A stretch of 64,000 nucleotides of DNA from an uncultured Phycisphaeraceae bacterium (GTDB taxonomy: Bacteria > Planctomycetota > Phycisphaerae > Phycisphaerales > UBA1924), in assembly GCA_964615815.1 (NCBI GenBank), contig CAZTQV010000013.1:50359-114358 (forward strand). Direction: 5' to 3'. Shown one piece after another: positions 24,603 through 48,917 of this stretch (position 1 is its first letter; every line of letters begins with the position of its first letter). The position numbers and the translations under genes are program-made. The notes beneath the pieces were generated by a model. It was not told the DNA's origin. It ran no database searches and saw only the letters and a list, made by a program, of their open reading frames with translations.

Positions 24603-27600
24603 GTGCGCCCGAACGGGCTCGACCGCCACCATCCGGCGGGGCCCCACCCACCGAACCGATATCGCTCCGGCATGAGCGACCGCCCGCAAGACCAGCGGCC
24701 CACCGACGCCGAGCAACGGCGGTTGGACGCCCTGCGCGAGCTCCGCATCATGGATTCCGGCGGCGAGGATCTCTTCGACGACCTCGTCCAGATCGCCGCC
24801 AGCACCTTCGGCGTCCCCATCGCCGCCCTCTCCCTCATCGACGGCCAGCGCGAGTGGTTCAAGGCCGCCACCGTCGAGCCACAGGGCGAGCTCCCACGAA
24901 ACCACGCCGCCTGCGTCATCGTCGTCGACGAGCGCCAGACCGTCGTCGTCCCCGACACACTCACCGACCCGCGATTCTGCGACCTCCCACAGGTCCGCCA
25001 CGGCCGCGTCCGCTTCTACGCCGCCGCGCCGGTCGCCACCGCGGAAGGTCTCGTCATCGGCACCATCTGCCTCAAGGACTTCCGCCCCCGCCCCTTCACC
25101 GCCTCCGACACCCAGCGCCTCGAAGCCATCGCAAAGCTCGCGGGATCCATGCTCGAGTCCCGCCGGAAGAACCTCGTCGCCGACGAGGAACTCACCCGCG
25201 TCGGCACGATCCTCCGCGAGTCCATCCACGGCCTCGTCGTCTTCGAGCCCGAGTACGACCCACTCACCAACGCTGTGGTTGATCTGCGATACCGCGAGAT
25301 GAACCCCCGCGCTGCCCATACCCTCGGGCTCGATCCCGCCGAAGTCCTGGGCCGTCGCCTCACCGAGGTCTTCCCAGCCACCAAGGGTCGCCTGCTCGAA
25401 GAGCGCATCGCCATCTTCAACGAGCGAAGAGTCGAGCAACTTCGCGAACGCTACAGCGACGACCGATACTCCGGCGTCTTCGACCAGCAGGTCTTCCGCG
25501 TCGGTGACTGGCTCGTCGTCACCTTCAACGAGATCTCCGACGCCGAGCTCGCACAAAAGGCCGCCGACGAAGCCGACGCACGACTCGCCGCCGCCGCCGA
25601 AGCATCCGGCGTCGGACTCTGGGACGCTTTCCCCGCGACCGGCGAATGCCAGTACAGCGACACCTGGTACACCCAGCTCGGCTACGAGCCCGGCGCCCTC
25701 CCACCGACGGCGCAGACTTTCTTCAGCCTCGTCCACCCCGACGACCTGCCCACCATCGAACGCATCGGCGAAGAGCTCGCCCGCGGCGAAAGCACCGACT
25801 TCGACATCACCATCCGCATGCGCCACGCCGACGGACACTGGGTCCGCATCCGCGACAAGGGCGCCGTCGCCGAAACAGACGACCAGGGCGGCGTCCACCG
25901 CATCGCCGGCGTCCACATCGATGTCTCCGCCGAGTACGAGGCCTACGAACGCCTCGAAAACGCAACCCACGCCGCTCGCATCGGATTCTGGGACTGGTAC
26001 CTCGACAAGGACCGCGTCGTCTATCACCCGAGCTGGTTCGCGCTCCTCGGCCGAGACCCCGCCGACCACCCTCAGCACCTCGACACCTTCGCGACGCTCG
26101 TTCACCCGCACGACCTCGGGGGCGTCCTCGAGCAGGTCGAGGCCTATGTCGCGGGCGAAACCCGCGTGCTCGACGCCACCTTCCGCATGAAGCACGCCGA
26201 CGGACACTGGGTCCACATCCGAAGCCGCGGCGGCGCCGTCGAGCGAGACCACGCCGGCCGCCCCACCCGCGTCAGCGGCGTGCACATCGATGTCAGCTCC
26301 GAGGTCGAGGCCCGAGACCGCCTCCGCCTCCTCGACCAGGCCGTCATGGCCGCCGACGACTCCGTCGTCATCACCACCGTCACCGCCGACGGCCGCCGCG
26401 GCGATGTCGCCTTCGTCAACCCCGCCTTCGAAAGACTCACCGGCTACCGCTTCAACGAGGTCCGCGGCCGCAGGCTCGAACAGTTCCTCGCCGGGCCCGG
26501 CACCGACCCGCACGAGGTCGCCGCCATCAGCGAGGCCATCGCCGCCGGCCGCTCCTACCACGGCGAGGTCCTCAAGTACCGCCGCGACGGCTCGCCCTTC
26601 TGGGTCGATGTCCATGTCGCCCCCGTCCTCGACGAACGCGGCGTCACCACCCACTGCATCACCATCCACCGCGACAGCACCGAACGACGCCGCGACCGCG
26701 ACCGCCTCGCCAGCGCCCTCCGCCGAGCCGAGGAAGCCAGCCGCGCCAAGAGCACCTTCGTCGCCACCATGAGCCACGAGATCCGAACGCCCCTCAACGG
26801 CGTCCTCGGCCTCGCCGAGCAGCTCAACGACACGACGCTCGACCCCGACCAGGAATCGCTCCTCTCAGGCGTCATGGAGTCCGCCCGACTCCTCCGCACC
26901 CTCGTCGACGACATCCTCGACTTCTCCAAGATCGAGGCCGGCAAGATCGAACTCGAGGACATCCCCTTCCAGCCCGCCACCATCGCCGGCCATGTCGAGA
27001 CCCTCCTCACACCCGCCGCCACCAAGAAGGGCCTCGCGTTCGAGACGAAGCTCCACCCCGGTCTCCCCGCCTGGGTCCTGGGAGACCCCACCCGTCTCCG
27101 CCAGGTCCTCATCAATCTCGCCGGGAACGCCATCAAGTTCACCGAGCAAGGCTCCGTCACCCTCCGCGTCGAGCCCGCCGCCTCGGGCGAGCAGCACAAG
27201 CTCACCTTCAGCGTCACCGACACCGGCCCCGGCATCGCCCGCGCCAAGGTCCTCGAGCTCTTCACACCCTTCACCCAGGCAGACGCCGGCACCACCCGAC
27301 GCTACGGCGGCACCGGCCTGGGCCTCGCCATCTGCAAGCGACTCGTCGATCTCATGGAAGGCCAGATCGAAGTCGACAGCACGCCCGGCCACGGCACGAC
27401 CTTCCGCGTCACCGCCGAGTTCCCGCCAGCAGAAGCCCCCCGCGCCGCCGCCGACGCCGCCGAGTTCGACGGCGTCACCGAAAGACCCCTCGAAGGCATC
27501 CGCGTCCTCGTTGTCGAGGACAACCCCATCAACCAGCGCGTCGCCGTCGGCCTGCTCACCAAGCACGGCGCCATCGCCTGCACCGCCGACGACGGAGACC

Positions 27601-28316
27601 AGGGCGTCCGCCGCTGGCACGCCGGCACCTACGACGCCGTCCTCATGGACGCCCACATGCCCATCCTCGACGGCATCGAGGCCACACGCCGCATACGCGA
27701 CATCGAAGCGCGCGAGGGCCGACCCCGCACACCCGTCATCGCCCTGACCGCGAGCGCCCTCGAGGAAGACCGCCGCCGCTGCATCGCCGCCGGCATGGAC
27801 GCCTTCGTCGGCAAGCCCATCGACACCCGCGAGCTCATCGCCCGCCTCAGAGAATTCACCAACGCCCCCGGAGCCCCCGTGCAGCAGACCGCGCCGATCG
27901 TCATCAGGAACGAGCCGGAGGCCCCGATCGACGACCTCCCCGTCATCGACACCGCGCTCACGCTCCGAGGCTGCGTCGACGACGCCGAACTCGCCGCCGA
28001 ACTCCTCGACGAGTTCCTCGCCCGCGCCGCCGACACACCCACACTCATCGCGGAGGCGCTCGCCCAGGAGCAGTTCAACGCCGCCGCTGGCGAAGCTCAC
28101 CGCATCAAGGGCGCCGCCGCCAGCCTCGGCCTCCGGAGGCTCCACGCCGCAGCCGGCGCACTCGAACGCGCCGCCCGCGCGAACGACCGCACCGCCTCCG
28201 CAGCCGCCCTCGGCACCTTCGCCACCACGCTCTCCAAGACCTGCGAAGCCATCCCCGCCGCGATCGAAGCGATCAACCCCGGCGCCGCCCGCACCGACGA
28301 AGCCTCCGCCGCCTGA
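24603..28316 (+). CDS. Hybrid sensor histidine kinase: GAF, multiple PAS/PAC, HisKA, HATPase, receiver and Hpt domains.
   Basis: HisKA H-box [15 protein letters not shown]. HATPase G-boxes DTGPGI and GGTGLGLAI. Receiver domain [14 protein letters not shown]...FVGKPI. Hpt motif [12 protein letters not shown]. An alternative start at MSDRPQDQ lies about 70 nt downstream. Confidence 0.85.
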
Positions 28317-32489: not shown

Positions 32490-34178
32490 GTGACCGATCG
32501 CTCCCACTTTCGCTCACCCGTCATGCCGGGCCTGCTGATGTCCACCCTCCAGCTCAGACTGACCTCCGGCCGCGGCCGACCCATCAAGCTCGGCAAGGAG
32601 CCGATCTCCATCGGCCGCCACCCCGACAACCGCCTCCGCGTCAAGGACGACCTCGCCTCCCGCCACCACTGCATCATCGAGCCCGCCCCCGATGTCGGCC
32701 CTGGCTGCTACCGCCTCAAGGACCTCCAGAGCCGCAACGGCACCAAGCTCAACGGCATGAAGGTCACCGAGAGCGTCCTCTCCGTGGGCGATGTCATCCG
32801 CATCGGCGCCATCGAGTTCGCCGTCGAAGAGCGCGGCTCCGAGAACGGCCCGAGCCTCTCCAGCAAGCGCAAGGTCTCCGTCGACGGCGTCCCCAACGCC
32901 GACACCCCCTGGGTCCAGGAGATCCAGGAAATCCTCGACGCCTTCGCCAGCCGAGGCACAGACGACGAAAGCCCCGTCCTCATCGACGCCCGGGGGCAGG
33001 ACACCAAGGCCATCGCCGGCTCCGGCGAGGGCCCACGCGCCCTGCGAGACCTCCTCCGCGTCGCCAGCCGCACCACCGCCACCGACATCCATGTCGAGCC
33101 CAAGACCGACGCGGTTCATGTCCGCATGCGCGTCGACGGGCAGATGGTCTGGATCACCGAGCTCCCCTCCCGCGTGGGCGAGCTGCTCATGGGCGTCCTC
33201 AAGACCGCCTGCCACATGCAGGCCGCCGCCCGCGACGCCATACAGGAGGGCCACTTCTCCTGCCGCTTCGCCAACCGCCGCGTCGAGTACCGCGTCAGCT
33301 TCACACCGTCGGTCTACGGCCAGAAGCTCGTCGTCCGCGTCCTCGACCAGCGGGGCGTCCCCACCAGCATCGAGGACCTGGGCCTCGTGCCCTACATGAC
33401 CGAGAAGATCAAGAAGGTCACCAACCTCGACGCCGGCATGCTCCTCGTCTGCGGGCCCACCGGATCCGGCAAGACCACCACACTCTACAACTGCCTCCGC
33501 GAGATCGACCGCGACGCGCGCAATGTCATCACCATCGAGGACCCCGTCGAGTACCAGCTCGAGGGCGTCACCCAGATGCCCGTCGACGACGGCCGCGGCA
33601 ACACCTTCCACTCCATGCTCCGCTCCGTCCTCCGACAGGACCCCGATGTCATCCTGCTGGGCGAGATCCGAGACGACGAGACCGCCCGCACCGCCATGCA
33701 GGCCGCCATGACGGGCCACCTCGTCTTCTCGACCGTCCACGCCAAGGACACCGTCGCCGCGATCTTCCGACTGCTCGACCTCCGCGTCGAGCCCTACCTC
33801 GTCGCCAACTCCGTCTCCCTCGTCCTCGCCCAGCGCCTCGTCCGCACCCTCTGCCCCCATTGCAAGACCGAGGTCCCCGTCCCCCCGGGCCTCGCCGGCC
33901 GCATGGGCCGCTACGGCAAGGGCGTCACGAAGTCCTACGCCCCCGTCGGCTGCAAGAACTGCCTGAAAACCGGCTTCCGAGGCCGCGAAGCCCTCTTCGA
34001 GCTCCTCGATGTCTCCGACGACCTCCGCGACATCATCCTCTCCAACCCCAACATCCAGGCGATGAAGAAGATCATCAACGAGGGCCAGTTCACCACCCTC
34101 GCCGAGTTCGGCTGGAAACTCGTCGCCGAGGGCCACACCAGCGTCGAAGAAGTCGACCGCGTCGCCGGCGGCAAGTGA
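32490..34178 (+). CDS. FHA-domain-fused GspE/PilB-type secretion ATPase (type II secretion / type IV pilus family).
   Basis: N-terminal FHA domain (ISIGRHPDNRLRVKDDLASRHHCII...LQSRNGTKLNG). Walker A GPTGSGKTT. Asp-box and His-box blocks typical of GspE. C-terminal tetra-Cys CPHC...C..C. The real start is probably MPGLL or MSTLQL, 30-50 nt inside the track ORF. Confidence 0.85.
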   Translation: MTDRSHFRSPVMPGLLMSTLQLRLTSGRGRPIKLGKEPISIGRHPDNRLRVKDDLASRHHCIIEPAPDVGPGCYRLKDLQSRNGTKLNGMKVTESVLSVGDVIRIGAIEFAVEERGSENGPSLSSKRKVSVDGVPNADTPWVQEIQEILDAFASRGTDDESPVLIDARGQDTKAIAGSGEGPRALRDLLRVASRTTATDIHVEPKTDAVHVRMRVDGQMVWITELPSRVGELLMGVLKTACHMQAAARDAIQEGHFSCRFANRRVEYRVSFTPSVYGQKLVVRVLDQRGVPTSIEDLGLVPYMTEKIKKVTNLDAGMLLVCGPTGSGKTTTLYNCLREIDRDARNVITIEDPVEYQLEGVTQMPVDDGRGNTFHSMLRSVLRQDPDVILLGEIRDDETARTAMQAAMTGHLVFSTVHAKDTVAAIFRLLDLRVEPYLVANSVSLVLAQRLVRTLCPHCKTEVPVPPGLAGRMGRYGKGVTKSYAPVGCKNCLKTGFRGREALFELLDVSDDLRDIILSNPNIQAMKKIINEGQFTTLAEFGWKLVAEGHTSVEEVDRVAGGK

Positions 34179-35236: not shown

Positions 35237-37792
35237 TTACCCGCGCAGCACACTCACCACAACACGCGCGAGTTCGCGCCAACCGAGCACGCGCGACCCT
35301 AGCTTCGCACGCGCCGCGCCGAGCGCGAAGGCGTGCTCCCACTGGCGGTACAGGACGCCGTACGCCCAGCGCGTCGAGCGCTTCGGGTCGTACAGGTTGG
35401 TCGCCTCACTGGTCATGCCGTTGAGCTCGATCACGCTGAAATCGCCTGATTTCAAGGCACTTTCGCTCGTCGCCCGCACATCGAAGCGCCCGAAATCGTG
35501 CGGCTCCCCGTTCGGCCCGCGGAAGTTCCGCGACAGCTCATCGACCGCGGCCTCGAGCTCCGGCGTGATCAGGTCGGCACCGTCCTCGAAGAGGCAGCCC
35601 TTGATGTGGTTGCCGGTTTCGGTGAGCCGCACGCGTTCGCCGGCGCTTGGGACCCAGTTGTCGAAGCGGGTGCCGAAGCGTAAGGCGTGCGTGGGCAGTT
35701 GTTTGCGGTAGCGGGGGTGGCGTTCGACGAGGGTTCGAAGTGTCGCCTTGCCGTCGCCGGTGACCTCGGGGAGGGTCTTGCGGGTGATCGCGAAGATGAA
35801 GCCTTGGGGGGCCGCGGCGGAATCTTCGCAACCGACGGTGTCGAGCCTTCGTATCCAAAAAATGCCCGTTTCGACGGGGCCGGGGTGGTATTCCTGGAGC
35901 ATCGCGGGGGCGGGGATGCGGTGGAAGGCTTGGTCGAGTTCGTCGTCGGTGCGCACGAGCGTCACATCGCGGCCGCGCTCGCCGGCGTCGGGCTTGACGA
36001 TGATCGGGAAGCTACCGAGATCGTGCGCACGGGTGTCCGAGTCGTGCGCGCGCCGCATGCACGCGCGCGCACGATCGGCACGGAATCCGGGGTTCTCGTG
36101 TGGGTCGATGACGACATGCGGCAGGACCCGCGGATCGTCCCCGAGCCCGCGCAGCATGCCCGATTTGGACTCGCCGCGGAGCCCCTCGGCGGGCCCGACG
36201 CCCGGGTTGGCGGCGGTCCAGATCAAGGGCGACTTATATCGTATTGACAAGCGGATGATCTGCGGGAGCAGAGGGACATACATAATGTACGAAGGCCACC
36301 ATTCGTGGTGGAGCCACTTGCTTATGTTGGTCCTCAGGCGGATGCGGCCCGTGCGGGTGGGCAGGGCGCGGGTGATCCGCAGCGCGATGATCGAGAGCAC
36401 GAGGTAGGCGAGCCAGCCGAAGCCGTTGGCGGCGTCCGCGAGCGGGGTCGAGAAGATCGCCTGCGCGATCGCGAGGGCGGCGGCGGTCCAGAGGAGGTCG
36501 GTGAAGACGCGGCCGACGGCGCGGAGGCGGCCGGGGCGGGACCACGCGCTCTTCGGCGTCAGGCGGCGGGCGATGAGGACGGCGAGGTAGGCGACGGCGA
36601 AGTCGAGGCTGAGGCTCGCGATGAGCCAGCCGAGGATCGCGCTCGTTGTTTCGGGGCGGTGGCGGGCACAGAGCGCGGCGATGGGGACGACGGCCCACCA
36701 GGGCCAGTCGCGGGCGCTGCGGGCGATGGCGTCGAGGATGGCGAGGGGGCCCGTGTGCTGCGGCACGGGGTCGAGGTCGGCGGCGTAGGTCTGGGGCGCG
36801 ATGCCGGGCGTGTCGTGGCGCTCGAAGAAGGGCGTGAGGATGGCGACGGTCTCGCGCGGCTGGAGGAAGGGGAAGAAGTGGCTGTACGGCGTCATGCAGA
36901 GGCGGCTGGTGGGGATGATCTCTTGGTGGCGCTCGGCGGCCCAGTCGGCGACGAGGAAGTCGTGTCGGCCGTGGAGGATGAGGGTCGGCGTGTCGAGGCT
37001 GGCCATGATGGCCCGCAGCGGCCGCTGGTCGGTGTCGAGGAAGTTTCGGATGAAGGCGTGGCGGAGCTCGCGCGGGCCCAGGAGGCCGAAGTGGGGGATG
37101 GCTTCGGGCAGGGCGGCGAGTGCGGCGTATCCGGCGGCGTACTTGAGCTTCTCGAAGTAGAAGGAGCCGGAGCCTTCGGTTTCCTCGGCGCCGATGGAGC
37201 CGAGCATGGTGAGGGAGGCGACGCGCTCGGGCTCGAGCTCGATCATGTGCAGCGCGACGCCCCCGCCCATGGACCAGCCGAGGGCGTGGACGCGGTCGAT
37301 GCCGAGGTGGTCGAGGAGGGCGAGTGTGTATCGGGCGTGGGCGCGGATGGAGTAGTCGGGGATCCAGGGGTCGGAGTGTCCGAAGCCCGGGAGGTCGAGG
37401 GTGAGGGTGTCGTAGCCGGCGGCGTTCAGGAGGGGGGCGACGAGGTCGAAGTTGTCGATCGAGCCGGGGGAGCCGGGGGGGCGGGGGGCGGGGGGGGGGC
37501 GATCAGCCGGGTCGCTTACGCTCGGGGCTCCATGGGAGAAGCGGTCGTTGTTTCCCTCGCTTGCGCTTCGGGCTCGTTGGGAGGCGTTCGTTGCCTTGCG
37601 GTGGTCGTAGGCGATGGTGATGGGGGGGTGGTTTGGGAGTTCGCCTTTGGCGCTGTAGGCGGAGACTTTGGTGGTGGGGTAGGGGGAGGGTGTGGGGGTG
37701 GCGCTGCGCGTGGTGAGGTGGGAGAGCGCGAGGAGGAGGGCGTAGGCGACGGCGGCGATGGTGAGCGGGATGCGCCGGCGGGTGCGTGTCAT
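35237..37792 (-). CDS. Fusion protein: signal anchor, alpha/beta hydrolase, polytopic membrane segment, C-terminal ATP-grasp-like domain.
   Basis: Nucleophile elbow GWSMGG and the HGRHDFLV block indicate a hydrolase fold. 4-5 hydrophobic helices lie in the WPWWAVVPIAAL...LVLSIIALRI region. C-terminal ATP-grasp hallmarks: FPIIVKPDAGERGRDVTLV and VIELNGMTSEATN. A G7-C-G6-C-G10 homopolymer region at 37475..37499 lies inside the coding sequence. Confidence 0.65.
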   Translation of the reverse strand: MTRTRRRIPLTIAAVAYALLLALSHLTTRSATPTPSPYPTTKVSAYSAKGELPNHPPITIAYDHRKATNASQRARSASEGNNDRFSHGAPSVSDPADRPPPAPRPPGSPGSIDNFDLVAPLLNAAGYDTLTLDLPGFGHSDPWIPDYSIRAHARYTLALLDHLGIDRVHALGWSMGGGVALHMIELEPERVASLTMLGSIGAEETEGSGSFYFEKLKYAAGYAALAALPEAIPHFGLLGPRELRHAFIRNFLDTDQRPLRAIMASLDTPTLILHGRHDFLVADWAAERHQEIIPTSRLCMTPYSHFFPFLQPRETVAILTPFFERHDTPGIAPQTYAADLDPVPQHTGPLAILDAIARSARDWPWWAVVPIAALCARHRPETTSAILGWLIASLSLDFAVAYLAVLIARRLTPKSAWSRPGRLRAVGRVFTDLLWTAAALAIAQAIFSTPLADAANGFGWLAYLVLSIIALRITRALPTRTGRIRLRTNISKWLHHEWWPSYIMYVPLLPQIIRLSIRYKSPLIWTAANPGVGPAEGLRGESKSGMLRGLGDDPRVLPHVVIDPHENPGFRADRARACMRRAHDSDTRAHDLGSFPIIVKPDAGERGRDVTLVRTDDELDQAFHRIPAPAMLQEYHPGPVETGIFWIRRLDTVGCEDSAAAPQGFIFAITRKTLPEVTGDGKATLRTLVERHPRYRKQLPTHALRFGTRFDNWVPSAGERVRLTETGNHIKGCLFEDGADLITPELEAAVDELSRNFRGPNGEPHDFGRFDVRATSESALKSGDFSVIELNGMTSEATNLYDPKRSTRWAYGVLYRQWEHAFALGAARAKLGSRVLGWRELARVVVSVLRG

Positions 37793-37817: not shown

Positions 37818-39236
37818 TCACAGGGAGAAGGTGTGCATGGCGTCCGCCTCGGGGCGGATGCGGTCGGCGGCGCTGGGTCTCGGGCGGAGGACCTTGGTCT
37901 GGAAGTCGTCGACGAGGACCTCGGCTGGTGTGGGGGCGTCGGCGAGGGGGGCGAGGGTGTCGCGGGCGTAGCCGCCGGCGAGGCTGATGCCAAGGGCGTC
38001 GCCGACGCGGACGGGGGGCATGAGCCGGCCCTCGGCGAGGGCGTCTCTGGCGGAGTAGGAGGGGCCGACGACATCGGACCACTGCATGCCGCGGGTGTCC
38101 ATGCGTTCGACGCCGGGCTTGGGGGGCTCGAGGTCGGGCGGGACGGAGATGGGCCAGACGGCGACGAGGCCTTGGCGTGTGGAGGGTCGTCTGCCCGGTG
38201 AGACGCCGGCGTCGGTGAGGACGATGACGCGGTCCTCGGCGGGCTTGATGTCGCGGACGCCGACGAGGAGGTGTCCGGCGGCGGCGGCGATGGCTCGGCC
38301 CGGCTCGACGATGAACGCGATGTCCTCGGCCTCGCCCTTGGGCCAGTCCTTGATGAGGGGCGCGAGGGCGGCGGCGTAGTCCTCGGGCGAGGGGGTGTCG
38401 GCGGGGGCCTCGTCGTCGGTGCGGCGGGGGCGGGGGCTCGGGGCGAAGCCTCCGCCGAAGTCGACGAGGTCGATGGAGTGTCCGGCGCGGGCGAGCTGGC
38501 CCGCGGTGTGGCGGAGGCGTTTGACGCCGGCGGCGAAGCGGTCGGGGGAGATGATGCCCGGGCCGAGGTGCATGTGGAGGCCCGTGAGGCGGAGGCGGGA
38601 GTCGTCGCGGTAGCGGTTGAAGAGCTCGAGCGCGAGGGCGAGGGGGAGGCCGAACTTGCCGGTGGGCGCGGGGGGCGCTTCGGGGTTGGCGGTGAGGTCG
38701 TCGAAGGCGTCGAGCTCGGGGTCGAGGCGGAGGGCGACGCGGCAGGAGATGCGCAGGCCGCCTGCGATGCGGGCGATGCGTTCGAGCTCGTCCTCGGATT
38801 CGGCGACGAGTCGGCCGACGGGTCCTCGGTAGTAGGGGGGCTTCTGGTCGACGGTGGCGCCGGCCTGGAAGAGTGGCGAGTAGAGGCCGTCGAGTGCGGA
38901 GCGGATGTCCTCGTCGGTCTTGCCGGGGCCGGCGAAGAGGACCTTGTTGAAGGGCGTGGTGGAGAGCCAGGCGCGTTCGAGTTCGACGCCGCTGGTGGCG
39001 GTCATGCCGGCGCCGGCCTTGGCGAGTATGCGGAGGCAGCCGATGACGGGGCAGGCGCGGAGGGCGAAGTGGACGCGGCAGTTGAGCGGGCTGAAGGCGT
39101 CCTCGAAGCGTTGGTAGCCGGCGCGGAAGGCGGCGGCGGAGTAGACGAGGGTGGGGGTGCCGTGGCGGTTGACGATGTCTGCGGCGCGGACATTCTCGCA
39201 GTAGAGCTCGCCCTGGCGGTAGGAGAAGTGGTCCAC
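37818..39236 (-). CDS. Diaminopimelate-decarboxylase-like protein (PLP fold III) with degenerate active-site motifs. Probably non-catalytic.
   Basis: Aligns to the LysA family (GTPTLVYSAAAFRAGYQRF, DFGGGF, EPGRAI), but the PLP-lysine motif FAxKAC reads HFALRAC, the HIGSQ motif reads HLGPG, and the CESGD motif reads YSARD. Confidence 0.75.
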   Translation of the reverse strand: MDHFSYRQGELYCENVRAADIVNRHGTPTLVYSAAAFRAGYQRFEDAFSPLNCRVHFALRACPVIGCLRILAKAGAGMTATSGVELERAWLSTTPFNKVLFAGPGKTDEDIRSALDGLYSPLFQAGATVDQKPPYYRGPVGRLVAESEDELERIARIAGGLRISCRVALRLDPELDAFDDLTANPEAPPAPTGKFGLPLALALELFNRYRDDSRLRLTGLHMHLGPGIISPDRFAAGVKRLRHTAGQLARAGHSIDLVDFGGGFAPSPRPRRTDDEAPADTPSPEDYAAALAPLIKDWPKGEAEDIAFIVEPGRAIAAAAGHLLVGVRDIKPAEDRVIVLTDAGVSPGRRPSTRQGLVAVWPISVPPDLEPPKPGVERMDTRGMQWSDVVGPSYSARDALAEGRLMPPVRVGDALGISLAGGYARDTLAPLADAPTPAEVLVDDFQTKVLRPRPSAADRIRPEADAMHTFSL

Positions 39237-39323: not shown

Positions 39324-40694
39324 CTAGAACTGCTGGCTCGTGAGGGTGAGGAGGGGGATCATGATGCTCATGATGAGGGAGCCGATGAAGGCGAAGAGGG
39401 CGACGATGAGGAGGGGCTCGATCGCGGCGAGGAGGCGGGCGGTGAGGGTGTCGAGGCGCTCTGCCATGTCCTTGCTGAGCTCTTCGAAGGCGCCGTCGAG
39501 GTCGCCGGCGCGGTCGGCGGCGACCAACAGAGTGCGCGTGGCGAGGGGGAGGGTGGTCATGCGGCTGATGAGGGTGCGGAGGATGCCGCCCTCGACGAGG
39601 CGGGCGCGGAGCTGGTCGAGTTCGCGGCGGAGCTTGGGGTGGTTGACGGCGTGGACGGAGACGCCGAGGGATTCGGCGAGGTTGACGCCGGAGCGGCTCA
39701 TGGCGGCCATGACGGAGAAAAAGCGGGCGAGTTCCTGGGTGAGGATGACTTCCTTCAGGAGTGGCACGGAGCGGGCGACGCGGCCCAGGGCGGCGCCGAT
39801 GGCGGCGCGGGCGGCGTAGGCGAGGGCCCCGAGGACGGCGAGGCCGAGGAGCACCGGGCCCCATTGGTCGCGGAGGAACTGGCCCAGGCCCATGACGAAG
39901 CGGGTGTAGGCGGGGAGGTCGAGGCCGGCCTCTTCGAGCGAGGCGCCGATCATGGGGAGGATGACGGTGAGAAGGAGGACGCCCGCGAGCAGGCCGACGG
40001 TGGCGACGATGGCGGGGTAGATCAGGAGCGTGATGGCCTTGTTGCCGATGGCCATGCGGCGGCGGATGGTGCGGGCGAGCTGTTCCGATGCGGCGGCGAG
40101 GTCTCCGGTGCGTTCGGCGGCTCGGTAGACGGCGACGGTGACGCGGTCGAAGCCGCCGGCGGTGGCGGCGGCGTCGGCGAAGCTGGAGCCGGCGGCGACG
40201 CGCTCGCGCATGCGGTCGACGCGGGACTGCTGGGCGGGCTTGACGACGCTGGCGGCGACCTCGAGGGCGTCGACGAGGGGGACTCCCCGAGACACGAGCT
40301 GGGCGAGCTGTTCGTTCAGGGCGGCCTGGTCGGACGGGCTCATCGCCTTCTCGGGGGCGAGCCACGCGGGGACTGGCCAAGTTCGGAGGACGACGAGGCG
40401 GTCGCGCTTCAGCGTCTCGCCCAGGGCGCGGGAGGAGCGGGCGCGGCGGACGCCCATGGAGCGGGCGCCCGCGGGGTTCGCGGCGAGGTAGAGGAACGCC
40501 TTGGGGTTCGCGGCACGGGACACGGGTGGATGGTACTTCGGCTGGGGGTCGGGGTTGCGGTGAGTCGGGAGGGGGCCTGGGTCTGGGTTCGGGGCTGGAT
40601 GTTGGTGTGTGTACGGTACGCGGCTTTCGGCGGGGAGGGAGGTACCATCTGGTATGACACACGCTGCTGCGCCGACTGTGACGCCTTCCACCAC
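39324..40694 (-). CDS. Type II secretion / type IV pilus platform protein, GspF/PilC family.
   Basis: Two GspF repeats (GVPLVDALEVAA..., GVNLAESLGVS...) and three TM segments (LLIYPAIVATVGLLAGVLLLTVILPMI, LIVALFAFIGSLIMSIMIPL). The true start is likely an internal Met (MGVRRARSS), around 40450. Confidence 0.8.
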   Translation of the reverse strand: MVEGVTVGAAACVIPDGTSLPAESRVPYTHQHPAPNPDPGPLPTHRNPDPQPKYHPPVSRAANPKAFLYLAANPAGARSMGVRRARSSRALGETLKRDRLVVLRTWPVPAWLAPEKAMSPSDQAALNEQLAQLVSRGVPLVDALEVAASVVKPAQQSRVDRMRERVAAGSSFADAAATAGGFDRVTVAVYRAAERTGDLAAASEQLARTIRRRMAIGNKAITLLIYPAIVATVGLLAGVLLLTVILPMIGASLEEAGLDLPAYTRFVMGLGQFLRDQWGPVLLGLAVLGALAYAARAAIGAALGRVARSVPLLKEVILTQELARFFSVMAAMSRSGVNLAESLGVSVHAVNHPKLRRELDQLRARLVEGGILRTLISRMTTLPLATRTLLVAADRAGDLDGAFEELSKDMAERLDTLTARLLAAIEPLLIVALFAFIGSLIMSIMIPLLTLTSQQF

Positions 40695-41786: not shown

Positions 41787-42056
41787 ATGACAAATTGGCT
41801 GCCGCCGCAACAGGGCGAAACGGTCATCCTCGGCGACACCACGAACGAGGCTGGGCGGATGGCGTGGCTTTGTTCGCAGTACCTCGTCAAGATTGTGGTT
41901 CTGCCGCAGCTTATGACATGTATCTACAAAGCACCCGATGGGCAGTTGTGGATCGAGGAGTATCCCCACGCGGAACGGCATGGTGGCGGCCCGATGCGGC
42001 TCCGACTCGTCGATCGGGCGCAGGTTAAGGCGATGTTGATCGCGGAGATCTCCTGA
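41787..42056 (+). CDS. Hypothetical small protein in the lower-GC islet.
   Basis: ORF only. Codon usage is less GC-biased than neighbouring genes. Followed immediately by structured repeat copy 1. Confidence 0.3.
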   Translation: MTNWLPPQQGETVILGDTTNEAGRMAWLCSQYLVKIVVLPQLMTCIYKAPDGQLWIEEYPHAERHGGGPMRLRLVDRAQVKAMLIAEIS

Positions 42057-42063
42057 TACGAAC

Positions 42064-42166
42064 GGGCGTCGTCGGCACGGCTTGCCGCAGAGCCGGTCAA
42101 GCCGTGGCACCCGGCGTCTGGTGTGGGCCGGCACTACGCGACGCGGGGCGTCGCATAGTGGCACCG
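42064..42166. repeat. Structured intergenic repeat of ~103 bp, copy 1, containing two hairpins: CACGGCTTG-N13-CAAGCCGTG and GCGACGC-GGGG-GCGTCGC.
   Basis: About 90% identical to 43831..43933. A 33-bp core also occurs at 43053..43085. Confidence 0.6.
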
Positions 42167-42295
42167 CGCGAGATCGTGGTTGCTTGGCCTCGGTCGCCGG
42201 CTGCCGAATCTGTGAAGGTAAGGCAGACGAGCTATGCGCCGTTATCGCATCGGCACGGTACGATCCTGCGGTTGTTCACCTGAGGGCTGGCTGAG

Positions 42296-43006
42296 ATGCG
42301 ATACTTGGTCTTGTTGGTTGCGATATTGGTGCTGATGTCGGTGGTTTCCTGTCGGTCGGTGGAGACAAACGGTGCGTCTGCTTCCGCTGAACCTGAAGCG
42401 GTTGCGGGCAATGTAGTTGCGTCCCCTGCGTCGCAGTGGGCTTCGAGCCTCGTTCGATGGCGGGTCTCTGCGACTAACGAGGGCGACGGCGAGCTTGTGG
42501 GTCGCAGTGCAACCGCAAGTGCTCATGATGGTCTTGCGGTCATCGTTGACAGAGTGAGGCACGACAATGAATTGGTTGTGTCGCAGTATGTGGTGGATAT
42601 TGATGCAGACGGGACCGTCGAGGAAGTTCTCGAGTCGGTCGAGTTGTATCGCGTGTCGGGTGATGAGTACGAACTGTATCGACGGCTTGCAGATGAGCTG
42701 TGCGCGGCGTGCGATGGCATCAGTGTCCGTCCATTAGAGATAGTGGGCAATATAGTTGTGCACAGCAACTACGAGTGTGATAGATACATTGTTGTTGATT
42801 CAGTTGCTGCAATAAATGTAATGATAAATCGCGCTGCGTTTCCGGGCTTTGAAGCATACATTGAATCCCGAATAGCTCGGTCCATTGCAAAGAGCGAGTT
42901 GTCGAGAATAAGCTACCAAACAGTTCGACAGAATTGTGGCCAAATTGAGGGCGCTTTGTTAGATGTGTTTGACGAGCTGCAAATGGCCGCGGCGCAGGCA
43001 GAGTGA
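42296..43006 (+). CDS. Hypothetical lipoprotein in the lower-GC islet.
   Basis: Lipoprotein signal MRYLVLLVAILVLMSVVSC. GC content is clearly below the window average. No recognisable domain. Confidence 0.5.
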   Translation: MRYLVLLVAILVLMSVVSCRSVETNGASASAEPEAVAGNVVASPASQWASSLVRWRVSATNEGDGELVGRSATASAHDGLAVIVDRVRHDNELVVSQYVVDIDADGTVEEVLESVELYRVSGDEYELYRRLADELCAACDGISVRPLEIVGNIVVHSNYECDRYIVVDSVAAINVMINRAAFPGFEAYIESRIARSIAKSELSRISYQTVRQNCGQIEGALLDVFDELQMAAAQAE

Positions 43007-43032
43007 TGCTGGGGTTCGTGCCTCGGCCATGA

Positions 43033-43090
43033 GCGGCTTCCTCGGCGCGGATTGTCGCAGAGCCGGTCAAGCCGTGGCACCCGGCTCGGC
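43033..43090. repeat. Partial copy (core TGTCGCAGAGCCGGTCAAGCCGTGGCACCCGGC) of the structured repeat.
   Basis: A 33-nt block nearly identical to the core of copy 1. Lies between the lipoprotein ORF and the membrane-protein ORF. Confidence 0.5.
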
Positions 43091-43185
43091 CGCGGGCGGG
43101 CTGCATCGCTTTGGCACGAGTCGGGTGTACGCTGAGCGCGGTGCCAAGTGTCGCGAGTGTGGTCGCGCTTTGAAAGGGATGTATC

Positions 43186-43803
43186 TTGAATGGCCGAGGG
43201 TGCCCGTCGCCGCGGGGTATCCGTTTCCAGCTATGCACGCCTGAAGAGGCTGTCGCGAATGGTGCGAGCTATTCGAGTTGGTCGTTGCGTCCGGCGCTCG
43301 TGTGGTGGTTCTTTGGCATCCTGCTTGTGGTGATTCCTTGGGGCATTGAGTATGGCGGCTGGTTGCCGGCAGTGTATCGGAGTCCAGACGAGATCGAGGC
43401 CGATGCGCCTGTTCGAAATCATCTCTTCGTAGGTCTCATCGCGTTCTATGTCATCGCCTTTGGTGGTGGTGCGCTGCGTGCGGCGACTTACGAGCACATC
43501 GTGGTCGAGAATGACCGGTGTCACCTGCGTTGGAAGTTCACGCCGTGGGTCACCTGGAAAAGCAGGCGGTTCCGGGTGCCCGTTCCGGTCATGCTTGTGC
43601 GTGCTTCATCGCAGTTCGGGAACATTGGATATCGTGAAGTTGGCGTGTTGGTGTGCTTTCGCGCCCATGATGCCAATGTCTGCGTCGCGGGGTTCAAGAC
43701 GGAAGGCGAAGCGCGGGATTGGATCGGGCGGGTGCCGCAATCGCGTATCCGCGTGGATGAAGTCGTTCGTAGCTGGATGGTCAGTACGGTCCCGTTTCCG
43801 TAG
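43186..43803 (+). CDS. Hypothetical membrane protein (2 N-terminal TM helices plus a soluble domain) in the lower-GC islet.
   Basis: Hydrophobic segments LVWWFFGILLVVIPWGI and LFVGLIAFYVIAFGGGAL. Lower GC. No known domain. Confidence 0.45.
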   Translation: MNGRGCPSPRGIRFQLCTPEEAVANGASYSSWSLRPALVWWFFGILLVVIPWGIEYGGWLPAVYRSPDEIEADAPVRNHLFVGLIAFYVIAFGGGALRAATYEHIVVENDRCHLRWKFTPWVTWKSRRFRVPVPVMLVRASSQFGNIGYREVGVLVCFRAHDANVCVAGFKTEGEARDWIGRVPQSRIRVDEVVRSWMVSTVPFP

Positions 43804-43830
43804 GTTGTGCGACGCCGCTTTGTGGCAAGT

Positions 43831-43933
43831 GGGCGTCGTCGGCACGGCTTGGTGCGGAACCGGTCAAGCCGTGGCGCCCGGTGTATGGGGTGGGGCGGCA
43901 CTACGCGACGCGGGGCGTCGCATAGTGGCACCG
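43831..43933. repeat. Structured intergenic repeat, copy 3 (full length).
   Basis: GGGCGTCGTCGGCACGGCTTGGTGCGGAACCGGTCAAGCCGTGGCGCCCGG...GGCGGCACTACGCGACGCGGGGCGTCGCATAGTGGCACCG. About 90% identical to copy 1. The loop differs while the stem is kept. Confidence 0.6.
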
Positions 43934-43943
43934 GGGGTTGTGA

Positions 43944-44024
43944 ATCAGAGCCGCGATCGTGAGATCGCGGGGTTTGTGCGCCGGTCGTGGGGGCGGACCG
44001 CGATCTCACGATCGCGGCTCTGAT
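43944..44024. repeat. Perfect 27-bp inverted repeat (ATCAGAGCCGCGATCGTGAGATCGCGG / CCGCGATCTCACGATCGCGGCTCTGAT) separated by a 27-nt GC-rich spacer. Sits at the 3' end of the Hsp70 gene and is a probable bidirectional terminator / REP-like element.
   Basis: Read directly from the sequence. The left arm recurs verbatim at 48934..48960. Confidence 0.6.
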
Positions 44025-44100
44025 TGGGAGTGGCTCTGATTGGAGTGGTGCTGGTTGGGAGTGGCTCTGATTGGAGTGGTGCTGGTTGGGAGTGGGTCTG
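44018..44100. repeat. Tandem direct repeat: about 2.6 copies of a 31-bp unit (CTCTGATTGGAGTGGTGCTGGTTGGGAGTGG).
   Basis: Read directly from the sequence, immediately after the inverted repeat and before the Hsp70 stop codon at 44108. Confidence 0.55.
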
Positions 44101-44107
44101 GTTGGGG

Positions 44108-46042
44108 TCAGTCGTCTTTGAGTGTCGCGGTGATGGCGACTTCCTGGAGTTTGATGCTGGCCTGGTCGAGGGCGTCTTTGGCCTTGGCGAAGGCGTTGGC
44201 GTCGACGGATTGCCAGTTGTTCTTGGCGTCGGCGACGAGCTTGGCGAGGTGGTCGCGTTTGGTTTCGAGGTCGGTGCGGTAGGCGGGGTCGAGGGCGTTC
44301 TTGTGCTTGTCGAAGCGGTCGCCGATCCATTTCAGGTCGAGCTCGGAGTTCGTGATGAGGTCGACGATGCGGTGGCGGGTCATGTCCTCCTTGGCGTGGG
44401 CGTAGCTCTCGGCCTCGATGCGTTCGACCTCGGACTCGGTGAGGCCGTGGTTGGGGATGATCTGGAGCTGGGCTCGTTTGCCGGAGCGTTTCTCGGTGGC
44501 GGCGACCTTGAGGACGCCGTTGGCGTCGACGAGGAACTCGACCTCGAGCTGAGGGATGCCGGCGGGCATGGGGGGGAGGCCCGCGAGGTGAAACTCGCCC
44601 AGGCTGCGGCAGTCCTCGGCCATTTCGCGTTCGCCCTGGAGGACATTGAGCTTGATGGAGGTCTGGCCGTCGACGGCGGTGGTGAAGGTCTCGGTGGCTC
44701 GGGCGGGGACGGAGGAATTGCGGACGATGAGCTTGGCGACGGCGCCGCCGCGGGTCTCGAGGCCGAGGGAAAGTGGGATGACATCGAGGAGGAGCGTGGC
44801 GGCGGGTGCCTTGCCGGCGCCGGCGAGGATGGCGCCCTGGACGGCGGCGCCGAGCGCGACGACGGTGTCGGGATCGAGTGCGGTGTAGGGCTCGACGCCG
44901 AAGATGTCGGCGACGGTGCGTTGGACGAGGGGGATGCGTGTGGAGCCGCCGACGAGGACGGCGCGGTCGACGCTCCCGTTGTCGAGTTCTGCCTTGGCGT
45001 CTCGGAGGGCGCGTTCGCAGGCGGCGCGGGTGCGGTCGACCCAGGGCTGCATGAGCTCTTCGAGCTCTGCGCGGGTGACGGTGCGGCGGTAGGGCTCGCC
45101 GGATTCGGTGGCGATCTCGACGGTGGTGGTCTCGTCGGTGCTGAGCTTGTGCTTGACGGCGCGGGCGAAGCCGGCGATGGCGCGGCGGGTCGTTGGGGGG
45201 AGATTCGCGAGGTCGGCACCGAGCCCCATCTCGGTGAGGAAGAGTTTGACGAGCGCGAAGTCGATGTCGTCGCCGCCGAGGCGGGTGTCGCCCGCGGTCG
45301 ACAGGACCTGGAAGAAGCTCGGGTCGTCTCCGGCGGCCTCTCCGGGGATGATCCTGAGGATCGAGACATCGAAGGTGCCGCCGCCGAGGTCGTAGACGGC
45401 GACGGTCTGCGGCTCGGCGTTGCGGTCGGCGGAGCGGGCGAGGCCGATGCCGTAGGCGAGGGCGGCGGCCGTGGGCTCGTTGACGATGCGGGCGATGTCG
45501 AGCCCGGCGAGCCGGCCGGCGTCGCGGGTGGCCTGGCGTTGGGCGTCGTCGAAGTAGGCGGGGACGGTGACGACGGCGCGGCGGATGTCGCGGCCGAGGG
45601 CGCGTTCGGCGCGGCGCTTGAGGGCGGCGAGGATCTCGGCGGAGACTTCCTGGGGGGAGACGACCTTGGGCGGAGAATCGGGATCGAGCGGCAGAGCGAC
45701 GCGGGCGGTGTCGTGCTCACCGGAGACGACCCGGAAGGAGAGGTAGGGCAGGTCGGGGGCGGCGTCGGCGAGGCTGCGGCCCATGAGGCGCTTGACCGAG
45801 GCGACGGTGGTGAGGGGGAACTCGGGGGCGCGGTCGGCGGCGTCGGGTCCGAGAACGGTGCGGAAGCCCCGGGGCGACCCCGGGTCGGGCTCGTAGCGCA
45901 CGACGGAGGGAAGTATCGGGCTCTCGGCGTCGTTGGCGAGGACGCGGGGCCCCTTCTCGTCGGCGATGGCGACGAGGCTGTTGGTGGTGCCGAGATCGAT
46001 GCCGATGATGGGCTCGGGCTGGGTTGGCTCTTGGGTCGTCAT
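44108..46042 (-). CDS. Hsp70 family chaperone (DnaK/HscA-like).
   Basis: N-terminal actin-like ATPase motifs [22 protein letters not shown] and [10 protein letters not shown], followed by a substrate-binding domain and a C-terminal helical lid. Confidence 0.9.
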
Positions 46043-47611: not shown

Positions 47612-48787
47612 TTAGGGGCTCGTGGTGAGATCCACGAACTTCCGTCGGCGGATGTGGGCGGCGCCGAGTTGGCCGCAGGCGCCCATCATGGCGCGGCCCT
47701 TGGTGCGGCGGCGTTTGACGAAGATGCCGTCCTCGGTGAGCCAGCGCATGAAGTCGTCGACCGACTCCTCGGTGGGGGCGGGCCAGGGGGAGTCGCGCCT
47801 CGGGTTGTAGGGGATCAGGTTCACGAGGCCCTTGGGCGAGCGGACGCCCGGGATGCCCTTGAAGGGCTCGAGGTAGTCGGCGAGCTGGCGGGCGTGCTCG
47901 CGCTGGTCGTTGACGCCCGGGATGAGGACATACTCGAAGCAGATCTTGCGGCTGCCCGACCGCTCGAGCCCCAGCAGCGCCTCCCGCAGCGCCGCCATCG
48001 GCATCGCGCGGTTGACGGGCATGAGCTCGTCGCGGACCTCGTCGTTCGGGGCGTTGATGGAGATCGCGAGGCCCAGCCTTCGCCAGCCCTCGCGTTTCAC
48101 GACCTCATCGAGCTTGCGGAGCCCGTCGATGCGCCCGACGGTCGAGACGGTGATGCGGGACATCGCCACCCCGCCCCCGTTGTGATCCGCCAGCACCCCG
48201 ATCGCCCGGATGACCTCGTCGATGTTGTCCATGGGCTCGCCCATGCCCATGAAGACGATGTTGTCGATGTTCGCCCCGAGCTGGTGCGTCGCCGCCCACC
48301 ACTGGCCCACGATCTCCTCGGCCCGCAGCGAGCGGATCAGCCCCATCTGCGCTGTCTCGCAGAACTGGCAGTTCATCGCGCACCCCACCTGGCTCGAGAC
48401 GCACAGCGTGTGCGTCCGCGTGCCGGTGCGGCCGACCATCGGGATCACCACGCTCTCGATGTCGAGGTGCTGGACGCGCTGGTCCTTCGCGAGGACGCCC
48501 AGCGGGTGGGCGTCGGCGGCGCGGGGCGTGGGGCGCGTGGGGGCGGTCCAGTCGGGGCCGGGCATGCCGTCGAGGCGCTGGACGAACTTGGTCGTGATGC
48601 CCTCCGGCACCTCCTCGTCGAGGCGGTCGACGATCGGCGCGATCTTCGTGCGAGCGATGATGCGGCCCCGGTCGGCGGCGGCCTCGGTCTTGCCCTCGCG
48701 GAAGATCTCCTGGTAGGCGCGGCGGGCCTGGCCGGGCCCCGCGCCGAGGCGTTCTTGCGCGGCGCGGGTGAACTCGGCGAGGGTCAT
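47612..48787 (-). CDS. rlmN: 23S rRNA/tRNA m2A methyltransferase RlmN (radical SAM).
   Basis: Radical-SAM CxxxCxxC in SSQVGCAMNCQFCETAQMG. RlmN blocks VSTVG, GVNLIPYNP and the C-terminal Cys. Start set at MTLAEFTRAAQERLG; the track ORF extends to 48913. Confidence 0.85.
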   Translation of the reverse strand: MTLAEFTRAAQERLGAGPGQARRAYQEIFREGKTEAAADRGRIIARTKIAPIVDRLDEEVPEGITTKFVQRLDGMPGPDWTAPTRPTPRAADAHPLGVLAKDQRVQHLDIESVVIPMVGRTGTRTHTLCVSSQVGCAMNCQFCETAQMGLIRSLRAEEIVGQWWAATHQLGANIDNIVFMGMGEPMDNIDEVIRAIGVLADHNGGGVAMSRITVSTVGRIDGLRKLDEVVKREGWRRLGLAISINAPNDEVRDELMPVNRAMPMAALREALLGLERSGSRKICFEYVLIPGVNDQREHARQLADYLEPFKGIPGVRSPKGLVNLIPYNPRRDSPWPAPTEESVDDFMRWLTEDGIFVKRRRTKGRAMMGACGQLGAAHIRRRKFVDLTTSP

Positions 48788-48884
48788 GCCGAGGGGGTCG
48801 ATGGGGGTGGTGGGGGTGGGGGGTGAGGATGGAGACGGGCCCGTGGTCACGGGGCGATGGTAGGGGGGGAGGGGGAGGGCACAT

Positions 48885-48917
48885 GGCCACATCGCAAAGG
48901 GCCAAAGGGTCAAATGG
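48885..48917. other. Second copy of the CCAAA-iterated motif (GGCCACATCGCAAAGGGCCAAAGGGTCAAATG), just upstream of rlmN.
   Basis: About 85% identical to 47565..47594 and in the same orientation. Confidence 0.4.

Follow-up and report, generated by a model that had tools for sequence, protein, structure and literature searches.

Diaminopimelate (DAP) decarboxylase, LysA (EC 4.1.1.20; TIGR01048; structures 3n2b, 2p3e, 1twi, 2yxx), is a two-domain enzyme of fold-type III that works with pyridoxal 5'-phosphate (PLP). In the Thermotoga maritima enzyme (TmDAPDC), Lys46 is the residue of the internal aldimine and the proton donor to the carbanion; the pyridinium stays protonated through Asp65, which also pairs with the lysine, and Glu246; stacking on PLP is the task of His179, and phosphate binding that of Ser182 and Tyr343; Arg249 and Arg285 hold the distal carboxylate, and Glu315 of the other subunit the distal amino group, so that each active site is built with residues of both subunits (PMC8277567). 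An inactive member of the fold is known in eukaryotes as antizyme inhibitor (AZIN1/2), a paralogue of ornithine decarboxylase (ODC) (PMC3170320, PMC4066113). Described here is a LysA-like gene of an uncultured Phycisphaeraceae bacterium, found in a window of 64,000 nucleotides (the whole stretch of DNA that was analysed). Judged by its residues, the encoded protein is very probably not a DAP decarboxylase and most likely makes no use of an internal aldimine. Its gene is followed directly by that of a membrane protein with alpha/beta-hydrolase and ATP-grasp domains, referred to below as the partner. The literature searched contained no described LysA-derived pseudoenzyme.

LysA-like protein of 472 residues, encoded on the minus strand (39236->37818), a point on which the initial annotation needs correction. 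The start codon is GTG, in agreement with the N-terminus of the homologues (MxxFxYRQGELYCE). The coordinates of the gene and of every motif were confirmed by translation. GC content at third codon positions (GC3) is 0.93; that of the window as a whole is about 70%. Two Pfam domains are recognized above their gathering scores, Orn_Arg_deC_N (PF02784; 1.4e-29, 103.7 bits) and Orn_DAP_Arg_deC (PF00278; 1.3e-7, 32.2 bits). The protein is aligned end to end by phmmer with the LysA structures 3n2b (4e-37), 3vab (8e-35) and 2p3e (2.8e-34), and identity to LysA over the full length is 26–36%. An AlphaFold2 model built with 46 homologues as input has a mean pLDDT of 91.7 and a pTM of 0.91; Foldseek places it closest, among PDB entries, to DAP decarboxylases and D-Orn/D-Lys decarboxylase, which make up all the top matches (TM 0.75–0.87). 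It is clearly a member of the fold-type III PLP decarboxylase superfamily, with TIM-barrel and C-terminal beta-sandwich, and the full-length relationship to DAP decarboxylase proposed in the initial annotation is borne out. Membership in LysA itself fails on two counts. The best NCBIfam model, lysA (TIGR01048), gives 199.3 bits and does not reach the curated equivalog cut-off of 297.9, and four classes of catalytic residues are altered.

Equivalent motifs were taken from phmmer pairwise alignments and from an alignment of 120 sequences. FALRAC corresponds to (Y/F)A(V/L)KA(N/C) of LysA, with Arg60 in place of the Schiff-base Lys; HLGPG to H(I/V/L)GS(Q/P), with Pro226 in place of Ser; GPSYSARD to GP(I/V/L)CE(S/T)xD, with Tyr394 in place of Cys and Ser395 in place of Glu. 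These are the three degenerate motifs pointed out earlier (HFALRAC, HLGPG, YSARD), and both kinds of alignment agree on them: the Lys, His and Cys motifs are not shifted. A fourth catalytic loss, absent from the earlier account, is Thr79 at the position of T. maritima Asp65. GGGF (261–264) and EPGR (311–314) are retained, as had been noted. Mapped from TmDAPDC, the pocket reads Lys46=R60, Asp65=T79, His179=H223, Ser182=P226, Glu246=E311, Arg249=R314, Arg285=R350, Glu315=S395 and Tyr343=Y423. A signature of 11 residues was read at window positions 60/79/223/226/311/314/350-351/394/395/398/423. It is K-D-H-S-E-R-(R)P-C-E-D-Y in canonical LysA (55 of 55 sampled) and R-T-H-P-E-R-R-Y-S-D-Y in the window protein, which has lost 5 of the 11. 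No conserved substitute lysine was found near Arg60; K72, in helix 65–73 of the model, is variable among orthologues. Unlike LysA, the protein is without the Schiff-base Lys, its Asp partner, the phosphate Ser, the Cys-Glu dyad (in LysA contributed by the second subunit) and residues of the active-site lid. Like LysA, it has the barrel and beta-sandwich, the glycine phosphate loop (GGG), the stacking His, the Glu and Arg of EPGR and the GAY-type Tyr that binds phosphate.

The losses are a property of a family. Close relatives were found only in metagenome bins of Planctomycetota/Phycisphaerae in a search of 5.8 billion proteins. In an exhaustive hidden Markov model search, 1.84 billion cluster representatives yielded no more than four degenerate ones of the family (P0010, P0044, P0357, P0359), and essentially every other full-length top match examined has the canonical LysA signature. 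The family is small and restricted; it numbers 39–44 members, depending on the analysis. In a neighbour-joining tree of 94 sequences (55 canonical LysA and 39 relatives of the window protein; without support values), the 39 form one clade inside the 'long' LysA group, with the Phycisphaerales LysA P0030 as sister. The canonical signature is intact in none of them. Asp79 and the Cys are kept in no member, the Glu in one only, and in a sub-clade of 417-residue proteins the C-E region is deleted. The Schiff-base position is occupied by D in 13, Q in 9, K in 8, R in 5 and A in 2 members, and by E or S in the remainder. EPGR is altered in sister clades (E to Q or R, R to W): one clade combines E311 to Q/R with Y423 to D, another R314 to W with the C-E deletion. 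More than 20 positions with at least 95% conservation in canonical LysA have become relaxed in the family, among them H183/T188 of the lid and Y354 of RPxxY. G261–G263 are invariant throughout the family and canonical LysA. The reading frames are intact and full-length in all members, and dN/dS against the closest relative, an 89%-identical orthologue, is 0.12. The gene is under strong purifying selection. Degenerate decarboxylase machinery in a LysA-derived paralogue, the core of the initial annotation, therefore stands, and as a family-wide feature, not an accident of one genome. That annotation had also raised a fold-III subfamily in which such substitutions are the norm and the activity is known; the subfamily exists, no known activity goes with it, and at the Schiff-base position the substitution itself varies.

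A 27-residue insertion (115–141) is strictly conserved in the family, LDGLYSPLFQAG..V....PPYYRGPVG, with the overall pattern LDG(L/I)YSPLFQAG.TV.G.PPYYRGPVG. Y119, S120, P121, G126, P133, Y136, R137, G138, P139 and G141 are invariant or nearly so, and almost all newly invariant residues of the family lie within this segment. It is modelled with a pLDDT of 95–98 and is a candidate for a new interaction surface. LysAs of the 'long' type, which occur in Phycisphaerales and several other phyla, already have insertions at the same two places as the LysA-like protein. The canonical version at this site is looser (LDGRxSPLAG....RGPIG), which supports descent of the family from that LysA type; the invariant version is specific to the family. 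The most economical history to be drawn from the neighbour-joining tree has three steps. The lineage's own 'long'-type LysA would have been duplicated; decarboxylase function would have been lost early (Asp, Ser, Cys, Glu); the lysine, no longer constrained, would then have drifted, with selection moving to the insertion.

A second degenerate LysA-like protein, apparently independent, was met in the search of representatives (P0378, 419 residues). It is without the family insertion and reads R-A-A-P-E-R-E-F-A-R-Y, against canonical K-D-H-S-E-R-R-C-E-D-Y.

Two motifs of the insertion were scanned against one genome per species in 185,579 species. They were found at only 14 confirmed loci, all in metagenome-assembled genomes (MAGs) of Phycisphaerae type. 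At 14 of 14 loci an orthologue of the partner gene lies directly downstream on the same strand, at distances from a 4-nt overlap (JAHDXL01) to a gap of about 240 nt. In the window, 25 nt separate the LysA-like stop codon from the partner gene, and 87 nt separate the upstream GspF/PilC-like gene from the LysA-like gene; the earlier figures of 26 and 88 were each off by one. The pairing does not depend on residue 60, which is R in JBCDIT01, K in PAKY01, S in CP060234 and D in JAHDXL01. With the same partner present and K, R, Q, S, D, A or E at the Schiff-base position, the variability argues against conserved PLP-aldimine chemistry and for a shared family function independent of an internal aldimine. 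The constant pairing fits the idea, already put forward, that the protein is a subunit for an ATP-grasp ligase. Apparent fusion reading frames of the two genes in L014 and L016 were judged to be upstream frame extensions; in L016 the tblastn matches lie in different frames. The locus L025 (RHKP01000018.1), deposited as 'Cyanobacteria bacterium CYA', carries the pair with the pdxH-like/dnaB synteny of Phycisphaerae type, and its label is probably a binning or labelling error.

Partner protein of 851 residues, with N-terminal hydrophobic anchor, alpha/beta-hydrolase domain, three or four further hydrophobic helices and C-terminal ATP-grasp domain; an integral membrane protein. The hydrolase/transmembrane/ATP-grasp fusion recognized in the initial annotation is thereby upheld. 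The hydrolase domain is matched by Abhydrolase_1 (1.9e-27, 96.9 bits), and its triad Ser174 (GWSMG)/Asp278/His305 is invariant in 5 orthologues. In the ATP-grasp domain K600 (ATP-binding), D771, R773, E789 and N791 do not vary in 50 homologues. Neither Pfam nor NCBIfam has a model that reaches threshold on this domain. Its comparison values were 14.7 for LysX/ArgX, 13.8 for cyanophycin synthetase 2, 13.7 for DcsG, 13.4 for D-Ala-D-Ala ligase, 12.9 for RimK and 12.3 for glutathione synthetase. Fold and invariant residues together confirm the ATP-grasp assignment, and by these residues the domain looks active. It differs from the RimK/LysX/Ddl/cyanophycin-synthetase ligases in its low identity to them (9–19%; 15–17% for the top matches), in a distinctive N-terminal HHEWWP...NPG..GG.GESK module, and in its fusion to transmembrane helices and hydrolase or, in other Planctomycetes, to DedA/VTT.

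The partner encoded in the window is perhaps not typical in every respect. The oxyanion motif (V/I/L)L(L/I)HGSPG, present in all orthologues including the 76%-identical L014, is disrupted in it. Residues ~66–107 (37472-37597, minus strand) contain a low-complexity insertion of ~28 residues. An independent Logan contig (L001) supports the window sequence up to residue 89. A frameshift was rejected as the cause of the missing motif, since no alternative frame encodes it. To go by its sequence, the hydrolase domain of this copy may be impaired, notwithstanding the intact triad.

In other Planctomycetes the ATP-grasp domain has homologues that are mostly proteins of ~540 residues, in which it is fused to a DedA/VTT membrane domain. 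Membrane tethering is thus habitual in the ligase family and would suit a substrate associated with the membrane. No LysA-like neighbour stands beside the DedA/VTT-ATP-grasp genes of Frigoriglobus and Phycisphaerae RAS1, which adjoin TANGO2-like and DinB_2 genes. A LysA-like partner is specific to the hydrolase-transmembrane-ligase version of the family. At these two loci (L011, 7105-9593, Frigoriglobus tundricola CP053452.2; L012, 7249-9614, Phycisphaerae bacterium RAS1) the gene of ~530 codons overlaps the stop codon of the TANGO2-family gene, and the DinB_2 gene precedes. This three-gene arrangement in Planctomycetes is conserved and apparently undescribed. The literature searched held nothing directly relevant on ATP-grasp/DedA/TANGO2 or on non-catalytic fold-III proteins.

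Table 1. Coordinates of the LysA-like gene, its motifs, the partner gene and neighbouring genes in the window.
Feature	Position	Strand	Basis
Partner gene, 851 aa: hydrophobic anchor, alpha/beta-hydrolase, 3–4 transmembrane helices, ATP-grasp	35237..37792	-	Pfam, hydropathy, fold matching
ATP-grasp ('carboxylate--amine ligase') domain of partner, residues 486–851	35240..36337	-	Fold and motifs
Transmembrane region of partner, residues ~360–480, 3–4 hydrophobic helices	36353..36715	-	Hydropathy
Alpha/beta-hydrolase domain of partner, residues ~100–330	36803..37495	-	Abhydrolase_1
LysA-like protein, degenerate active site, Phycisphaerae-restricted family	37818..39236	-	Pfam, NCBIfam, phmmer, AlphaFold2
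YSARD 394–398, in place of C-E-(S/T)-x-D; Asp398 kept	38043..38057	-	Alignments; role PMC8277567
EPGR 311–314, retained in window protein	38295..38306	-	Alignments
GGGF 261–264, glycine loop	38445..38456	-	Alignments
HLGPG 223–227, in place of HxGS(Q/P); stacking His223 kept, phosphate Ser replaced by Pro226	38556..38570	-	Alignments
Family-specific insertion, residues 115–141: LDGLYSPLFQAGATVDQKPPYYRGPVG	38814..38894	-	Alignments, AlphaFold2
Thr79 codon, position of conserved Asp (TmDAPDC Asp65)	39000..39002	-	Alignments; role PMC8277567
Arg60 codon, position of Schiff-base/proton-donor Lys (K in 55/55 canonical LysA)	39057..39059	-	Alignments; role PMC8277567
GspF/PilC-like gene, two T2SSF domains; lineage-specific neighbour, outside the conserved unit	39324..40694	-	Pfam, NCBIfam
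Radical SAM gene, RlmN-like motifs; orthologues (52–57% identity) adjoin the LysA-like gene in 7 other loci	47612-48913	-	Motif reading

The favoured reading is that the LysA-like protein serves the ATP-grasp/hydrolase membrane enzyme as a non-catalytic subunit, for ligand binding, specificity or regulation; taken as a whole, this statement is held to be somewhat better than evenly probable. Physical interaction with the partner and the nature of the substrate are inferred. The protein has a normal LysA N-terminus without signal peptide and is therefore taken to be cytoplasmic; the ATP-grasp domain, needing ATP, must face the cytoplasm. The soluble protein would dock on the cytoplasmic ATP-grasp domain, its surfaces being the new insertion and what is left of the DAP/lysine/PLP pocket. 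The ligase might join an amino acid or diamino acid to an acceptor associated with the membrane, and the product might be processed or removed by the hydrolase domain. The sole hints at a membrane lipid or lipid-linked wall precursor as substrate are the membrane tethering and the DedA fusions. A more specific version remains doubtful. It proposes a hitherto undescribed two-gene envelope system of Phycisphaerae, in which the dead LysA would be the recognition or sensing subunit for a diamino acid (DAP/lysine-type) and the transmembrane ligase-hydrolase enzyme would ligate it, on the cytoplasmic side, to a lipid or lipid-linked cell-wall precursor, with the hydrolase trimming or releasing the product.

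Several points weigh against the subunit reading. That the protein is inactive is read from its sequence only. The Lys is still present in eight family members, so that residual or different PLP chemistry is possible in part of the family; His223, Glu311, the GGG loop and Tyr423 are kept, and non-covalent binding of PLP or another phosphorylated ligand, with some catalysis, is possible as well. Adjacency is no proof of a complex: rlmN upstream and pdxH-like and dnaB genes downstream are conserved merely as synteny, and some of the pairing signal may be gene order inherited within one class. Topology of the partner is ambiguous by hydropathy and the positive-inside rule (1+3 or 1+4 helices), which places the hydrolase on either the periplasmic or the cytoplasmic side. 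Canonical LysAs are present in Phycisphaerales MAGs, but none was placed in an assembly that carries the family; three of Phycisphaerales/Planctomycetota (P0030, P0027, P0295) come from other assemblies, and the 64-kb window has no second LysA copy. The tree, lastly, has no bootstrap values.

The rival that survives best is a LysA-like protein that is still an enzyme, with new chemistry. PLP, or some other phosphorylated ligand, would be held without a covalent bond, and the enzyme's target would be what the ATP-grasp ligase uses or makes; it might, for instance, bind, isomerise or decarboxylate a diamino acid after its ligation, with no internal aldimine involved. The window protein keeps R314, R350 and D398 along with the four pocket elements just listed, selection is strongly purifying, and the gene is paired with two catalytic domains. 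Against this, seven different residues stand at the lysine position beside the same partner, and the very residues kept in the window protein are lost elsewhere (E311 and Y423 in one clade; R314 and the C-E region in another). No set of pocket residues is common to the whole family, which is unlike the prediction of a shared catalytic mechanism. New chemistry is considered unlikely.

Still less probable is a dead subunit that forms heterodimers with genuine LysA and so tunes DAP/lysine flux, on the model of antizyme inhibitor or a 'prozyme'. As both subunits contribute to each active site of LysA (PMC8277567), a heterodimer with the LysA-like protein would be inactive or altered. The family goes back to the LysA type of the organism itself, the fold that forms the dimer is kept, and dead paralogues that regulate fold-III decarboxylases are known (antizyme inhibitor; PMC3170320). 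The constant pairing with a membrane ATP-grasp/hydrolase gene and the new conserved insertion are left unexplained by this proposal, however, and no locus shows linkage to lysA or dap genes. The antizyme-inhibitor analogy drawn in the initial annotation holds only in the sense of a dead paralogue of a fold-III decarboxylase: both proteins would be inactive paralogues kept by selection for a binding role (PMC3170320, PMC4066113), as far as inactivity of the LysA-like protein can be predicted. The parent is ODC in one case and DAP decarboxylase in the other, in different domains of life and by independent origin. Antizyme inhibitor is a decoy for antizyme; the LysA-like gene has no antizyme-like gene beside it, its partner is a membrane protein, and nothing points to a decoy mechanism. 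Its gene context also differs from that of LysA, being membrane ligase/hydrolase and not lysine biosynthesis. Another LysA-like fold-III paralogue in an envelope-related gene context is the exosortase-A-associated PLP-dependent decarboxylase (TIGR03099); the LysA-like protein is no member of it, with only 90.6 bits against a cut-off of 478.

A role as accessory of a type II secretion or type IV pilus-like machine is very improbable and is largely refuted by comparative context. It was prompted by the GspF/PilC-like gene upstream on the same strand, with no terminator-like site between, and by an FHA-GspE-like ATPase gene 1 kb past the partner gene. GspF adjoins the pair only in the lineage of the window (including the short metagenome contigs L001/L002) and in JBCDIT01; elsewhere the upstream gene is radical SAM, rlmN-like (7 other loci), fabH-like (another) or different again, and the GspE-like gene is convergent and missing from other loci. 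The operon with GspF, conceived earlier as a three-gene unit, is not conserved and was dropped.

A decaying pseudogene or annotation artefact without function, to which the lost catalytic residues and the score under the lysA cut-off might point, is the least credible of all and already refuted by conservation: intact full-length frames in all members, dN/dS, GC3, a confident model and an invariant insertion.

The pattern to be expected of a pseudoenzyme is unusually clear in the family: the Asp partner and the Cys-Glu dyad were apparently lost first, the catalytic Lys is replaced differently by clade (R, Q/S, D/A/E), and a new insertion has turned invariant. The pairing with an ATP-grasp/hydrolase gene is new; the family is confined to uncultured Phycisphaerae, and its function rests on inference. 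The pair offers a handle on an uncharacterised ATP-grasp family that is without Pfam or NCBIfam model, widespread in Planctomycetes and always membrane-tethered. Its substrate may have to do with lipids of the envelope or with peptidoglycan, the phylum being one whose envelopes are unusual. Should the two-gene envelope system prove true, it would be the first bacterial LysA-derived pseudoenzyme and the first functional handle on this ATP-grasp family, whose fusion domains elsewhere (DedA/VTT) resemble lipid transporters.

In JGI/IMG, members P0015, P0018, P0043, P0050 and others are labelled 'diaminopimelate decarboxylase'; in NCBI they are hypothetical proteins. The label on this degenerate family is likely a systematic mis-annotation, and metabolic reconstructions from Phycisphaerae MAGs that use it may wrongly credit a genome with complete lysine biosynthesis or with two lysA genes.

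Gene neighbourhood of the window: the GspF-like protein reaches 184 bits against an equivalog cut-off of 424. No terminator-like site was found on the minus strand between the GspF, LysA-like and partner genes, so that the three may be co-transcribed here. Downstream of the pair, 6 of 14 loci have a pdxH-like gene and dnaB, both missing from the window; these two genes were rejected as functional partners and regarded as synteny. The radical SAM gene of the window, RlmN by motif reading, lies 8.4 kb from the pair and was likewise rejected as a functional third gene, its motifs pointing to conserved synteny. The ancestral order was probably rlmN / LysA-like / partner / pdxH-like / dnaB, with ~8 kb inserted in the lineage of the window. 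The insert carries ADH, DnaK, peroxiredoxin-like and other genes.

The gene for an FHA-domain GspE/PilB-type ATPase (T2SSE 1.4e-104, and FHA) is at 32490-34178 on the plus strand, convergent to the pair, so that the secretion/pilus genes are split around the pair, in this lineage only. Positions 42001-44000 have a GC content of 0.60, against ~0.70 elsewhere. Two open reading frames there, 42296-43006 (+) and 43521-44330 (-), have no Pfam match; in a matching Logan contig the gene beside ADH encodes an Imm27-family immunity protein. The region may be a small foreign insertion. A hybrid sensor kinase of 1237 residues, unrelated to the pair, is encoded at 24603-28316 (+), with GAF, multiple PAS, HisKA, HATPase, receiver and Hpt domains.

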